Positions 34,760 through 60,645 of a DNA stretch of 64,000 nt are shown here, in pieces. Under the pieces are notes generated by a model. The model had not been told where the DNA came from and searched no databases. It was given only the letters and a program-made list of their open reading frames with translations. The stretch lies in assembly GCA_964016885.1 (NCBI GenBank), contig OZ024745.1:124310001-124374000 (forward strand), written 5' to 3'. The stretch's first letter is position 1. Each line of letters opens with the position of its first letter. This stretch comes from Eledone cirrhosa (Eukaryota). The translations under genes were made by a program, and so were the position numbers.

Positions 34760-34945
34760 TCCAGTCTGAAAATAGCTGTTGAAATGGCAACAGCTCAGCC
34801 GTTGGGTCCAAGACTCTTTATAATATAACGCTACTCTACTACTCCAAGTATCGTTTATTCTGTTGAGTTTAACCAGTTTCAAACTGATTCCATCCTGATA
34901 CATAGCTGTCGAAATGGCCAGAGCTCAGACATCGGGGTCCGGAAT
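34760..34945 (+). mobile_element. (TA)n-abutting element with tandem ~48-bp repeats carrying degenerate hammerhead halves
   Basis: atagctgt(t/c)gaaatggc...agctcag...gggtcc occurs twice. Homologous to 49130-49285 (-). Confidence 0.6.
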
Positions 34946-35306
34946 CTTTTCGTATATATATATATATATATATATGCAAACTATCAAAACAATGTGTAAT
35001 TTCAAGTCATTAAAAAAATCTAGGAATCCAAAATGCAGAAAATAACTGTAATAGCAGTTGATTGCTTTAAATAATGGTTTAGAAAATGAGGTCAAATACA
35101 CCTATGTTGGAAAAAAGAAGCATGCAGCTGCTTGGAGGAATCAAATTCAATATCTCTTGAATTCTAGCCGAGTGTTTCAACCATTGAGCTAAGGGGCCCC
35201 TGGTCACTGATTTTGACTGAATTAACTATACTGAACAGCTAGTATGTATGTATATATAAATTTATTTATATATATAACATATATATATATATATATATAT
35301 ATATAT

Positions 35307-36150
35307 ATTGTTATACTTGGGGAGGGTCATATTTGCGTAATATTGCCAGAATTAATAACAGAACACACTCACTGTTTGGTTGATTTTCGCTTCTCGCTGT
35401 CTTTTATATCTGCGATCTAACTTACTCGGTCCTCAATGTTGCCATTGACTGACCGACGGTCAAAAATAATACAGATACAATATAGACACAAACGCATATA
35501 TATAGTTTACATAATTTACATAAATCTTTCGTTGCACATCTGCAACATCGTCAGTGGTGTTATATTTTTTCCTCCTGTTGTGTTGTATGTCTACGCCATT
35601 TTTTATTCAGTCTGTCTATATATTTATTTATTTATTTGCTTGTTTGTTTATTTTATTTTGTCTTCTTTGCGCATGCGTTTGCGTGTGTGTATAGTGTTAT
35701 GTGTGCTGTGTGACTAGTGTGTATAGTGTTGTGTCTGCTGGGTGACTAGTGTGTGTTTATGTGCTTGTTGTTATTGTGCTTGTGTATGTATTTATTTATC
35801 TTATTTTATTTTATTTTAACACAACAGGAGGAAAAAATATAACACCACTGACGATGTTGCAGATGTGCAACAAAAGATTTATGTAAACTATATATATGTG
35901 TTTGTGTCTATATTGTATCTGTATTATTTTTGACCGTCGGTCAGTCAATGGCAACATTGAGGACCGAGTAAGTTAGATCGCAGATATAAAAGACAGCGAG
36001 AAGTGAAAACCAACCAAACAGTGAGTGTGTTCTGTTATTAATTCTGGCAATATTACGCAAATATGACCCTCCCCAAGTATAACAATATCTGTTTCGACAC
36101 ACGATTTCATATAAAAAACCTCGCTAAACTAATTCATCGCCGCTATATTT
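35307..36150 (+). mobile_element. Fold-back Penelope-like remnant in (TA)n: ~275-bp inverted arms plus 3' tail
   Basis: 35307-35584 is the reverse complement of 35818-36088. The arm contains CTGACGA-t-gttgca-gatg-tgcaac-GAAA (intact on - at 35527-35554). No local stem III or cleavage strand found. Confidence 0.75.
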
Positions 36151-36499
36151 ATATATATATATATATGTATATATGTATATATATGTATGTAAAAGGTAAA
36201 CAGAAATAACAACACAATCGGTACAGTATATGGATGGTATATAATATATATATACAATATTATATACTCACATACATACAAATAAACACACACACATATA
36301 TATGAAATCTATTTACCTTTCTTATATATATTTTCAATATTTTGTTCTGAATTGTTGTGATTTGTAAAAGATACAAAAGCTGAACAAACACAAGCAAATA
36401 GAAGCTAGTGGAGGATTCATATTAATATTGCTTGATTTGTTAGAGATAGCAATGAAACCTCCTCCAAATCACACCCTACTATCTGAAAAAAATGCTCAA

Positions 36500-37045
36500 T
36501 TATTACCGACCTGTTGCTAAATAACAAGAACACAAGCAAAGAAAGTTAAACGTGTATTCTGTATTCTTATATTGTAAGCTATATTTGCTGATGTCTTTTC
36601 AAGTGAGACATAATTTACTATAAATGTGACATTCTAACCAAAAGACATTCAGTCTCCTTAATACATTCCGACACAAAGACAATGAACCATGAAATACATT
36701 GTTAGACTTGAGAACATTTTGTATCAGTTACTAATGCATGAGTTGCCATGTGTAAGTTAGAATCAACCAATTATTGTATTTCTGTTGTACATTCTTATAA
36801 GTTGGATATCAACTTAAATATTTTTCTTTTTTACAAATGCTTTGTGTTTAATAATTTTTTTCGGCCAATGATTGCAACATCACGAATTCAAATTCTCTGA
36901 GTGCCATTAAACAAAACACATTACCATATTTGTGTTATATCCTGTCTATGAAATCTGCAGATGGTGAGTTGTTAGAGTATTAAAGAAATTTATGATAAGT
37001 CAGCAGTTCATATTCTGTCCCTATTTCTGGTTTGTTTTCAGAGCC
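36500..37045 (-). pseudogene. Possible fossil ORF (~180 codons)
   Basis: GSENKPEIGTEYELLTYHKFL*YSNNSPSADFIDRI*HKYGNVFCLMALREFEFVMLQSLAEK...VFHGSLSLCRNVLRRLNVFWLECHIYSKLCLT. Confidence 0.35.
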
Positions 37046-37182
37046 AAGAAAGCAAAAAGAAAACAAAAAAAAAAAAGTAAAAAAAAACAAATATAAGGAA
37101 AAGAAGACATGAAACATACAGCTCTCTACAATGTAAGTCTCTTTTTCAATGTAAGTCGCGTCCATCACATTCTCCACATTAA

Positions 37183-37806
37183 CCCTTTTGTTACCATATT
37201 GTTAATGAAACATACTACCTATATCTTTAATAATTGTTTCTACTTTTGGCACAAGGCCAGTAATAACCCAGTACATTACTGGTACTTTATTTTATCGACC
37301 CCGTAAGGATGAAAGGCAAAGTAAACCTCGGCGGGATTTGAACCTAGAATGGCAAGGGCCGTAACTCTATGCGTCAAAGCATGGCGTCCGATGGCTCTAC
37401 CGATACTGCCAATCCACCACCCTTATCTATATCTTTAATAATATAACTAATTTCCTCATTATATATTTGATATTTGGAGCATAAATTAAGGACGGTTCTT
37501 GCATAACATTATGATGGGAGAGTTTTAAATTAATATCAATTAATTGTTTCTACTTTAGGCACAAGGCCAGCAATTACGCAGTGCATTACTGGTGCTTTAT
37601 TTTATCCACCCCGTAAGGATGAAAGGCAAAGTCAACCTCGGCGGGATTTGAACTCAGATCGTAAAGGGACGTAACTATGCTGGAAAGCATGGCATCCGAC
37701 CCTCTACTAATACTGCCAATCCACTGCCCTCAATTAATATTTTGAAACAAACAGTTTTGTATCATAGAACCATGTTCGGCTTCAGGCAGCTTGTTATCAA
37801 AAAGGT
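37183..37806. mobile_element. piggyBac-like MITE containing two family-A SINEs (37229-37423 -, 37540-37731 -)
   Basis: TTAA|cccttttgttacc...ttatcaaaaaggt|TTAA. Both SINEs have TSDs (ctatatctttaata; aattaatat). Confidence 0.75.
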
Positions 37807-37876
37807 TTAACATTAAAACCAGAAAATTATAAACATTTTGTTAGTTTGCAATGCTAAGTTAAGTTTCTGTCTACAT

Positions 37877-58595: not shown

Positions 58596-58619
58596 ACACA
58601 CACACATATATATATATAT

Positions 58620-59032
58620 AATAGCTCTCACCGAATTTTTGACTAAAGGAATTTTAACCTGATAATGGAGTTTGGAACCCTCAGATAAATGGAAAAAGAT
58701 GAGTATTGACGTACATGGGAGTCGAACCCACATCTTTGGTTATCGCAACCACTGTGCTACCACATCACCTATCTCTTTCCATTCAATTTAGAAGCTACAT
58801 TCTTAGCGAGTTTAAATGGCAAGTATGTTTTGAAATAGTGAGCAGGTTTGAAATTAGAAAATAGAATAGCTTTCACCGTATTTTTGACTAAAGGAACTTT
58901 AGCCTTTTTCCATTTATCTGAGGGTTCTAAACCCCATTATCAGGCTAAAATTCCTTTAGTCAAAAATACGGTGAAAGCTATTCTATTTTCTAATTTCAAA
59001 CCTGCTCACTGTTTCAAAACATACTTACTTGC
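58620..59032 (-). mobile_element. (TA)n-embedded element with direct and inverted terminal repeats and an internal tRNA-like Pol III head
   Basis: - strand A box TAGCACAGTGG (58759-58749) and B box GGTTCGACTCC (58728-58718). Direct repeat 58621-58660 / 58867-58903, inverted arm 58904-59026. Confidence 0.75.
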
Positions 59033-59984
59033 AATATATATATATTTATTTATTAACATAACAGATTAAAGTTTAAGCAAAGAATCGGTGCATTTATTAT
59101 TATTATTACTACATATATATATGTATATATATATATATATATATATATATATATATATATATATATATATATATATATATAAATATATATATCAGTGTCT
59201 GTGAGTATTAAGGGCATTAAGGGCATGGTGCCATCTGGGTAAGCAGTGCATATAAATAAATACACAAATTATTTGATAGAAAAAGTAAACAGTTCCCATT
59301 ATCGTTATAAAAATGGCTATATAATGCTTGGAATCTAAGATACAATTTAATAATTGGCTGGTATTTTGATGTTCCTCTGTCTTTCAAGTTCAATATTCAT
59401 ACTTACCATCATAGCTATTGAACACATTGTCATGAGTTCCATCTCTTGTATACATAAAATATAACAACAAAAGAAACAGAATATAATCTGATTTTGCCGT
59501 CATTACAATATGTACATGTTTATATATGTACATGTTTATATTATATTACATGTGTGTTTGGCTCTCATCATTGAATATATTTTATGAGCTCCATTGTTAT
59601 TTTATTAGAGTATATAAAATATAAAATATAAATAATGTATATATATATACATTGTTATTTTATGAGAGTATATAAAATATAAAATATAAATATATATATA
59701 TACACATATATACACACACACACACACATATATATATATATATATATATATATATTGTGTGTGTGTATATATACACGTTTTGGCACGCATAAAAGAAAAT
59801 AAGAAATGGAAATATTTCTCTATATGATGTTTTATATATTATAAAGTTTAAGTTTGTTTAAGTGCATATATAGATGCAACATAGTCGATTATGTGTGTAT
59901 AATGTATTACTATGATGTAGACATTTGGAAGTTTGAGCCAACCAACATTCTGTGATACATGCACCTCATACAATTAGTAGTGAA

Positions 59985-60125
59985 GATGCACGATTTAGTG
60001 GTTAGAGACTTGAATTCACAAGCTAACGCTAGTGTGTTTGATTTCTGGGCTGAGTGATGTGTTGTGTCCTTGAGCAAGACACATCATTTCATATGGCTCC
60101 TTCTGCCATGAGTTGCGACATACAC
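59985..60125 (+). mobile_element. Degenerate tRNA/CORE-like SINE head
   Basis: ttagtggttagag...gtgttgtgtccttgagcaagacac. Confidence 0.7.
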
Positions 60126-60246
60126 GCAGCAAATCTCCAAATTAGTTGACTGAATCTGCATGTGTGTTTTTTTTTCTCATTATTTTCCCATTTTTTTCCT
60201 TTTCTCACTCTTTATCTTTCTATTTCATCTTTTGTTTCTAATTCTA

Positions 60247-60283
60247 TCTTCTGATGAAGGACTATATATCTGAAACGTTAAGA
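60247..60283 (+). ncRNA. Minimal type I hammerhead motif (Penelope-like)
   Basis: tctt-CTGATGA-aggactatatatct-GAAAC-GT-T|aaga. Palindromic ACGT stem III, stem I tctt/aaga. Confidence 0.7.
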
Positions 60284-60409
60284 CACTTTTCCTGTTATTT
60301 CAATGGTTAAACTGATATATTTCTTCAATGTACTGTGTCATTTGCTTTGTTATTCTGCTTTCTTTTTACACACTCACACACACATATATATGTATCTATA
60401 TATATATAT

Positions 60410-60645
60410 ATTTATTAAAATAACAGATCAAAGTTTAAGCAAAGAATCGCTGCTTTCAACCTTAACAGGATCTTCTGAAACTCCCATTCAGAAGATCCCG
60501 TTAAGGGTGAAAGCAGCGATTCTTTGCTTAAACTTTGATCTGTTATTTTAATAAATATTTGCTCTACGGTTCTTATATATTTGATATATATTTATCCTTA
60601 TCGAGCCCTCTTTGGATTTTAGTCTTCAAATTTATTTTTATTACT
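60410..60645 (+). mobile_element. Fold-back element in (TA)n (~70-bp arms plus tail)
   Basis: 60410-60479 is the reverse complement of 60488-60558. Core-like CAGAAGA-tccc-gttaa-gggt-GAAAGC. Fragments also occur at 59045-59091 and inside the 31263 Helitron. Confidence 0.75.

Follow-up and report, generated by a model that had tools for sequence, protein, structure and literature searches.

Positions 34,760 to 60,645 of the window analysed here (64,000 nucleotides of Eledone cirrhosa; assembly GCA_964016885.1, contig OZ024745.1, 124,310,001 to 124,374,000, forward strand) hold a crowd of short elements lying in or against (TA)n tracts. A first-pass annotation, made from the letters alone, had read them as a guild of unrelated, hammerhead-bearing mini-elements, either non-coding ends of Penelope-like elements (PLEs) or retrozyme-like RNAs. 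Do they form a population of their own, or are they pieces of coding PLEs? We found that six families have coding parents elsewhere in the genome, that there are two 3' ends per family, that the flanks are (TA)n and that the junctions are specific to the copy. It is very probable that the elements are 5'-truncated, often head-to-head 3' ends of several endonuclease (EN)-bearing PLE families in (TA)n, likely made singly by each family's own reverse transcriptase (RT) and GIY-YIG protein. Judged from sequence, they are not a separate non-coding guild. As a kind they are a described PLE architecture; the families are new, and the elements are mostly explained.

Coding parents and the elements of the window

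The genome searched comprises 3.0 Gb, and our own-genome repeat searches scored only the best 40 candidates per query. They revealed members of dispersed repeat families at 11 of the 12 listed places. With the best 40 of each scored, first-look candidates numbered 1,672 (35307 family), 1,935 (60410), 2,607 (34760), 4,502 (60247), 1,679 (58123), 2,387 (46892), 910 (41800) and 782 (43675). For the 44760/56590 and 49130 families we used copies met incidentally in the searched loci and in a sample of 60 evenly spaced 10-kb stretches.

In six families, longer copies elsewhere in the genome, when followed upstream, run into an open reading frame (ORF) for RT and GIY-YIG, the kind of link that the first-pass annotation had advised looking for: 35307, 44760/56590, 46892, 49130 (with its relative 34760), 58123 and 60410. 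The 35307 parent has an 837-aa frame with RT, a CX4CxxC linker and GIY-YIG; its RT matches Pfam RVT_1 at E 2e-4, below the Pfam cutoff, and the window arm is 99% identical to it in DNA. In the 46892 parent the RT (RVT_1, E 7e-10) is joined by a GIY-YIG match under the cutoff (E 0.003), and in the 60410 parent a 627-aa frame lies 931 bp above the hammerhead. The 58123 EN lies ~750 bp above the hammerhead in many copies, with the RT found in locus L258. For 49130, the EN lies ~1.05 kb above in several of the 29 copies found with a longer member, and an RT thumb is linked to the family as well. The 44760 EN is joined to the hammerhead in one locus, with the RT upstream, and of the 47 matches listed, source copy included, 30 cover the 1.7 kb between EN and hammerhead almost completely, at 93-100% identity. 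The window itself was said to hold no PLE RT or GIY-YIG ORF, and tblastn with a Neptune-like protein, and with Hydra and Neptune-like proteins, indeed found none there. Of the two origins proposed for the elements, PLE ends stood for the six families with coding parents; retrozymes were not supported for these copies, which are monomers or head-to-head pairs.

By motifs, not by tree, the 60410, 58123, 44760 and 49130 families are assigned to the Hydra clade of EN+ PLEs (Craig et al. 2021, PMC8557442), for which the available part of the supplement gives Hydra-1_Obim. Hydra-type proteins here are ~36-52% identical to the 60410 protein. DKT takes the place of DKG in the 60410 parent (L294) and in the RT in L258 (58123). 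The 60410, 58123 and 44760 proteins have a CxCX5C linker, with CxxC and CxH flanking the conserved E and N and no CCHH; the 49130 copies that were read carry a mutation of the final linker cysteine. The Hydra-type parents also resemble, by eye, the RT of Hydra-1_Obim as printed in PMC8557442. The 35307 and 46892 families look Neptune/Nematis-like, again by motifs and not by tree: a CX2-5CxxC linker before a C-terminal EN fits the 35307 parent, and loosely the 46892 parent. A protein-representative search returned 7,767 relatives at E<=0.001, and no clade placement came from them.

Two side observations concern the parents. The 35307 parent ORF (L071, L073, L074) has a long asparagine-rich stretch N-terminal to the RT. 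Long 58123-family insertions in L258, L257, L259 and L261 contain kilobase inversions, and in L258 an inversion, with no duplication, has turned around the 5' part of the ORF, a pattern like that of twin priming.

The window features are listed below by position; core 1 and core 2 are the CUGANGA and GAAA parts of the hammerhead core, C3 is a position of core 1, and pLTR stands for pseudo-long terminal repeat.

34759..34899, plus strand: short PLE end with the 3' half of a hammerhead, pLTR end and tail, without core 1; diverged relative of the 49130 Hydra-type family (2,607 candidates, ~83% identity)
34895..34952, plus strand: second short unit of the same superfamily, no tail, head to tail with 34759..34899, running into (TA)n
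35305..35818, minus strand: left arm, 3' untranslated region (UTR) and pLTR of a young Neptune/Nematis-like PLE, tail-less; C3 35554, GAAA 35530-35527; 99% to ORF-bearing copy L071
35818..36145, plus strand: tailed right arm with a decayed core 2 (G12 to A); the ATG at 36063, together with the tail, supplies the opening codons of the ORF belonging to the element
41690..42085, plus strand: PLE-type end with a long-stem-II minimal hammerhead; C3 41807, GAAA 41861; ORF link not found
43398..43800, minus strand: fold-back PLE-type end, tailed minus-strand arm and short plus-strand arm; C3 43732, core 2 decayed; ORF link not found
~43493-43673: repeat like a short interspersed element (SINE), splitting the 43398..43800 element
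44761..45051, plus strand: fold-back end of a Hydra-type PLE; both arms cut off inside core 1, right arm tailed
45228..45420, no strand: weak degenerate inverted repeat; family and hammerhead unconfirmed
46890..47190, plus strand: Neptune/Nematis-like PLE end, tail-less, with a family-fixed variant core (U4A, A6U); C3 46968, GAAA 46989
49128..49275, minus strand: short Hydra-type PLE end with tail, beginning in the stem-II loop; GAAA, stem III and GUC cut site present, core 1 absent
56593..56660, plus strand: 44760-family stub that extends from GAAA as far as the pLTR end and runs on into (TA)n
58123..58600, plus strand: fold-back end of a Hydra-type PLE with a canonical hammerhead, stem II ~105 nt, right arm tailed; C3 58265, GAAA 58376
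58123-58255: left arm of the 58123 fold-back, with an internal deletion
60128..60373, plus strand: PLE-type end with a canonical minimal hammerhead, into (CA)n/(TA)n; C3 60251; ORF link not found
60408..60645, plus strand: fold-back end of a Hydra-type PLE, family-fixed variant core (U4A) in both arms, right arm tailed; C3 60489 plus, 60477 minus

These features amend the earlier count of at least nine sequence-unrelated elements. The dispersed families bear it out in the main; 34760, and likewise 34895, is a relative of 49130 at 70-75% identity, and 45228 is an old, weak inverted repeat with no family match and no link to RT and GIY-YIG among the loci examined. The tgatgaa remnant credited to 45228 could not be confirmed as a hammerhead, the match to another hammerhead family being marginal (4 of 300 shuffles as high). 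Three elements are larger than had been listed (41690-42085, 43398-43800 with its SINE-like insert, and 60128-60373), and the supposed single element at 56480 is a different repeat (56375-56525) plus a 65-bp stub of the 44760 family.

More repeat ends associated with (TA)n, not listed before, lie at 31595-31848, 36183-36246, 44083-44202, 45134-45215, 45616-45930, 47310-48028, 48056-48635, 56375-56525, 58620-59031 and 59047-59094. They are more 60410- and 60247-family pieces and members of other families, several of them fold-back; 45616-45930 and 45134-45215 (both minus strand) belong to families having canonical minimal hammerheads.

Two 3' ends, mirror arms and the (TA)n target

Each well-sampled family (35307, 60410, 49130, 44760 and 58123) has two discrete 3' ends, the pLTR end and the tail, and tailed and tail-less 3' ends occur likewise in 46892 and 43675. 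Counted from C3, the two ends lie at +69 and +159 in 60410, +105 and +205 in 49130, and +104 and +199 in 44760. In the 35307 family, the pLTR end falls 21-25 nt past an ATG and the tail consists of the next ORF codons; in L012 this tail continues into codons of the L071 ORF, a continuity that was looked at in the 35307 family alone.

The first-pass annotation had credited most elements with an inverted copy of their own 5' part. Clear fold-backs were present at only 5 of the 12 places (35307, 43675, 44760, 58123 and 60410), where the inverted arm is another copy of that 3' end, reaching as far as the end of the pLTR. In the window fold-backs the tail lies on one arm and the other arm reaches no further than the pLTR end, as would be expected if each of two sites had been primed once. 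Family by family, arms with an inverted partner numbered 35/62, 20/42, 18/57, 7/41, 3/10 and 3/11, with 0/14 in 60247 and 0/3 in 41800. Twenty copies of the 60410 fold-back had 15 distinct junctions, indicating that the mirror arm is built at each insertion. The arms stand head to head with their hammerheads on opposite strands, so that they would not make a dimer in cis. The window copies include no tandem array of hammerhead units. Elsewhere in the genome, locus L293 (G000:C2:310208883-310209288) holds three identical 173-bp head-to-tail units of the 43675 family with core 2 decayed, a retrozyme-like mini array.

The earlier claim that the elements sit in or against (TA)n was upheld by the tail ends, 108 of 119 of which reach (TA)3+ within 22 nt over seven families (18/20, 30/31, 15/15, 20/25, 9/11, 10/11 and 6/6), compared with 9.7% of 18,000 random 24-mers; the 49130 tail, whose pattern matched nothing, is excluded from this count. 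In the random sample alone, (TA)3+ stood at 14 of 15 tail ends. The 60247 family prefers (CA)n, its ends meeting (TA) in 5 of 15 cases and some microsatellite in all 15. Of the pLTR ends, between a sixth and a half lead into (TA)n, and most of the others run on into the tail. Target-site duplications are masked by the (TA)n flanks.

It had further been supposed that a large part of the microsatellite-looking DNA consists of disguised elements. This did not hold: mapped ends cover ~18% of 34760-60645 and (TA)5+ covers 2.4% of the window, and the (TA)n tracts are real targets that adjoin the elements. Hydra and Naiad PLEs preferring (TA)n are already given for Octopus in the supplement of PMC8557442, so far as it is available.

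A possible course of insertion would run as follows. The endonuclease would cut both strands of AT-rich DNA, as the anatomy and the available text of PMC11167929 suggest, and the RT would prime internally on uncleaved element RNA at two sites, the pLTR end and the tail end. Two cDNAs, or one folding back, would then join at their 5' ends by microhomology, leaving one tailed and one tail-less arm. With less assurance, a transcript from an internal pLTR promoter might be primed near its 5' end, which would give the very short copies.

Hammerhead motifs and their abundance

Nearly all elements had been said to carry a CTGANGA...GAAA core. A strict scan (stem II >=3 bp and up to 40 nt), which under-counted, found three cores, at 35554 (minus), 41807 and 60251, against 0.43 in shuffles. 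With a full minimal-hammerhead descriptor, which allows long stems II and A at position 4, four motifs were detected in 34001-61000 (41807, 46968, 58265 and 60251), against 0.53 in 60 shuffles (maximum 2); it missed 35554 (minus), whose cores are intact, and 60489/60477, whose variant core is fixed in the family. The motif at 58265, whose stem II measures ~105 nt and whose stem I has 7 bp, agrees with the hammerhead seen earlier in the 58123 element. The Rfam hammerhead models recommended with the first-pass annotation gave no hammerhead among 132 matches up to E=5, nearly all of which were microRNA models on TA repeats; Rfam thus missed all the minimal hammerheads in the window. Single-copy folding gave no significant z-score for any of six motifs (best -1.74), as expected for minimal hammerheads.

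The 34760, 34895, 49130, 44760 and 56590 copies start inside or past core 1 and therefore hold only the 3' half of the hammerhead; their CTGAAAA/CAGAAAT stretches are stem-II sequence. The claim of near-universal cores fails for these copies; at the level of families, hammerheads are supported. CUGANGA and GAAA cores with stems I-III are the family majority in 35307, 41800, 43675, 44760, 58123 and 60247, stem I being weak in 35307. The majority core is a variant in 46892 (U4A and A6U, 28 copies aligned), 60410 (U4A, 19) and 49130 (one base short or C3-A8, 29). Since their stems are kept around non-canonical cores, these three would work like hammerheads at most. Natural hammerhead variants including U4C and A6C, with lowered activity, are described in the available text of PMC3088659, and the U4A core may already be known as a natural variant. 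If the U4A or one-base-short cores kept in these young families do cut, they would be new natural variants.

Covarying stems were borne out for stem II of the 44760 family only. Among 25 distinct motifs, 7 of 9 stem-II pairs have two-sided changes, and 97.3% of cells are paired, a level reached in 0 of 500 shuffles (slid controls, 37-51%). Some points count on the other side: taken by itself, the number of covarying pairs does not reach significance (66 of 500); the motifs were selected with a core-fixing pattern; and relatedness among sequences can outdo the shuffle control. In the short copies the hammerhead is probably a passenger of the pLTR, its cleavage being a prediction.

A 600-kb random sample of the genome contained 42 canonical motifs, where each of five shuffles gave 0-4; the 42 show 34 different stem signatures, and their stem III is mostly palindromic. 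Extrapolated, this gives roughly 200,000 minimal hammerheads genome-wide; mapped PLE-type ends make up at least 4% of the sample. Two variant signals were rejected: an A6U excess in the random sample came from one minisatellite (18 of 24 matches in L223), and a U4A-type scan signal did not exceed the shuffles once stem I was required (6 vs 4-6). Hammerheads with no other relationship repeatedly show a C-C mismatch at position four of stem II, in 10 of the 42 random motifs and also in the 44760, 41800 and 58123 families; a conserved tertiary contact is possible.

Elsewhere in the window, 15774-16307 is a near-perfect palindrome with 260-bp arms and nested inner palindromes, without a relative at E<=1e-12 among the loci examined. 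A minisatellite (unit ~73-75 bp, 18 copies) occupies 38009-39341, and a fragment at ~56900-57700 reads like the 3' end of an RT of the long interspersed element (LINE) type, unrelated to PLE RT and without a PLE tblastn match.

5' ends, alternative origins and known systems

Where do the short copies begin? We found that their 5' ends pile up at initiator (Inr)-like sites at or inside the hammerhead, not at its cut site. The 49130 type supplied 79 incidental arms, 49 of which begin at +40..+54 from C3, and the 60410 type 63, of which 19 begin at -10..+14; in the 43675 family, where the arms are mostly query-biased, 29 of 34 begin at -9..+2. The pile-up positions are 5 nt before C3 in 60410, 41-46 nt after it in 49130 and 9 nt before it in 43675. 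Starts within 5 nt of the predicted cut numbered 3/57 in 60410, 4/62 in 49130, 0/42 in 44760, 1/41 in 35307 and 0/10 in 46892, counts that leave out 58123 and 41800; the 46892 pile-up counts, swamped by simple-repeat matches, have no usable denominator. Because so few copies begin at the predicted cut, cleaved RNA does not usually serve as the template. The left edges are the A in TTAGTT (60410, 43675) or in TCATTT/TTAGTC (49130), words that we take to resemble the Drosophila initiator. Furthermore, 19 of 24 non-genomic 60410 junctions have G at -1 where the genome has T.

An internal promoter has been reported for Penelope (Schostak et al. 2008, PMC2377424), and the Adineta pLTR holds an Inr-like word (Arkhipova et al. 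2013, PMC3846280), according to the available parts of these papers. A literature search, in which few subscription journals were covered, found no paper tying a 5' pile-up of short copies to transcription start. Tentatively, the pile-ups at Inr-like sites are new and point to copies that extend from the transcription start to an internal RT priming site. That the short copies arise by RT priming near the 5' end of a transcript from the pLTR promoter, running off at the start, has close to an even chance in our view. A bolder form, which we rate somewhat below an even chance, is that the bulk PLE product is a cap-to-priming-site cDNA: the RT would prime 100-200 nt below its own Inr-like start and run off at the cap, sometimes adding G, and unrelated Hydra families would each shed tens of thousands of fixed-length, often fold-back mini-copies. 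If so, the 49130 start inside stem II would be a built-in switch between uncleavable and cleavable RNA, since only read-through transcripts would carry the whole ribozyme.

Several points weigh against this reading of the pile-ups. About half of the 60410 -1 G's are templatable by the inverted arm; in 49130 the extra G occurs in only 2 of 14, leaving the G excess to the 60410 family alone. A sharp Inr-like start was not seen in 60247 or 41800. Best-40 scoring favours query-shaped copies and biases the targeted counts, and the incidental counts take in both arms of one insertion.

The pile-ups might instead be RT stops at the structured hammerhead, or a 3' splice site, a reading that we consider tenable at less than an even chance. 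They do lie at or in the hammerhead, but the stop would have to fall after the stems are crossed (60410, 43675) or in the stem-II loop (49130). The 60410 and 49130 sites can also be read as a pyrimidine tract followed by AG, and, according to the available passages of PMC4209133, the 5' end of helix I is where an intron of Penelope stops; however, no constant upstream exon is joined. Against both forms, the commonest start in several unrelated families is an A inside a word of the TTAGT/TCATT type.

The short copies could also be true non-autonomous families, SINE-like or retrozyme-like, with short RNAs of their own mobilised in trans by PLE proteins, possibly via hammerhead-cut circular RNAs. 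A preprint (10.64898/2026.07.22.740005), in its accessible part, proposes animal retrozymes to be PLE derivatives, and a fixed 5' boundary is common to most 49130/34760 and 43675 copies, the latter family including the 173-bp tandem trimer. We consider this improbable overall. In six families the same pLTR sequence runs upstream into ORFs, the short 49130/34760 copies are without core 1 and would not cut themselves in cis, copies seldom begin at the cut site, and arrays are rare. As for the retrozyme form, it was not supported for the window copies, which are monomers or head-to-head pairs with coding parents, beside one tandem trimer only.

The points on which PLE ends are the less secure explanation concern the missing links. 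For 41800, 43675 and 60247 no ORF was found, the shared upstream sequence reaching no more than ~130, 10-20 and 330 bp respectively. Among the loci examined, the exact 34760 subfamily had no ORF link, and among the long loci retrieved there was no full pLTR-ORF-pLTR copy, the nearest being the pLTR-tail-ORF continuity in L012. The 41800, 43675 and 60247 families do have PLE-type anatomy and canonical family hammerheads; a non-autonomous origin may still hold for any of them.

Finally, inverted arms with TA flanks, and a 60410 fold-back that recurs at near-constant length, recall TA-targeting DNA transposons with terminal inverted repeats, of the kind of miniature inverted-repeat transposable elements, but this origin is hardly credible and is ruled out for the six ORF-linked families: 15 of 20 junctions are distinct, the arms are unequal with the tail on one side only, many copies are without an inverted arm, and the parents are RT-EN elements.

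With PLE 3' ends as the preferred explanation, the closest comparisons are to PLEs themselves. The available parts of PMC8557442 already describe inverted arms, tails, (TA)n targeting and Hydra and Naiad families in octopus. The available text of PMC3846280 attributes solo pLTRs to recombination or deletion and palindromes to self-priming. Like Adineta Penelope in that paper, the elements here have an inverted pLTR, head-to-head arms, a tail and an Inr-like motif, and the asparagine-rich stretch of the 35307 parent ORF recalls the N-rich inserts of Adineta Penelope. A putative promoter inside the pLTR would be as in Penelope (PMC2377424). For PAc, Frangieh et al. (2024, PMC11167929) describe internal initiation by the RT at two positions of an uncleaved RNA, with cutting and extension of the two target strands; similarly, two probable RT start sites here bracket a tail that in the 35307 family, as in PAc, is the ORF start, and uncleaved RNA is the probable template. 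What differs from the available parts of these three papers is that the 5' pile-up of short copies is tentatively linked here to transcription start.

Many minimal-hammerhead families per metazoan genome, mostly single motifs from truncated PLEs, were described by Cervera and de la Pena (2014, PMC4209133), and the pairs here, 100-700 bp apart on opposite strands, with an extra nucleotide after A9 and a palindromic stem III, are like theirs. Stems II of up to ~105 nt, the C-C mismatch, and the fixed U4A, U4A+A6U and one-base-short cores go beyond the passages of that paper available to us. The animal non-LTR retrozymes of 10.64898/2026.07.22.740005 are likewise short, hammerhead-bearing and PLE-related; in its accessible part they are tandem arrays, whereas the elements here are monomers or inverted pairs with coding parents. 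The available repeat annotation of Octopus vulgaris (PMC13282606) counts Penelope families and leaves hammerheads unmentioned.

With Neptune/Nematis-type PLEs the 35307 and 46892 families have in common a C-terminal EN and its cysteine linker (in the 35307 parent, CX4CxxC), a pLTR hammerhead, a tail and an inverted arm; 46892 departs from them in a linker of only loose fit and in the variant core of its hammerhead. The parents of 60410, 58123, 44760 and 49130 resemble the Hydra clade, as presented in the available parts of PMC8557442, in the C-terminal GIY-YIG, DKT (read in the 60410 and 58123 parents), the CxCX5C linker, CxxC and CxH, the 3'-end hammerhead and (TA)n insertion. The differences are at least four divergent families here with thousands of copies each, 3' UTRs of ~1 kb, stems II of great length and variant cores in two of the families. 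In the available supplement of PMC8557442 no match was found for six short motifs of the families here; that paper gives few Hydra families outside cnidarians, and one for Octopus bimaculoides. With young families and thousands of independent junctions, questions of PLE integration become open to counting, among them where the template RNA starts, how head-to-head arms form and whether the hammerhead ever cuts the template. Set against the available parts of PMC8557442, in which it was named, the Hydra clade appears to be much commoner and more varied in this genome.

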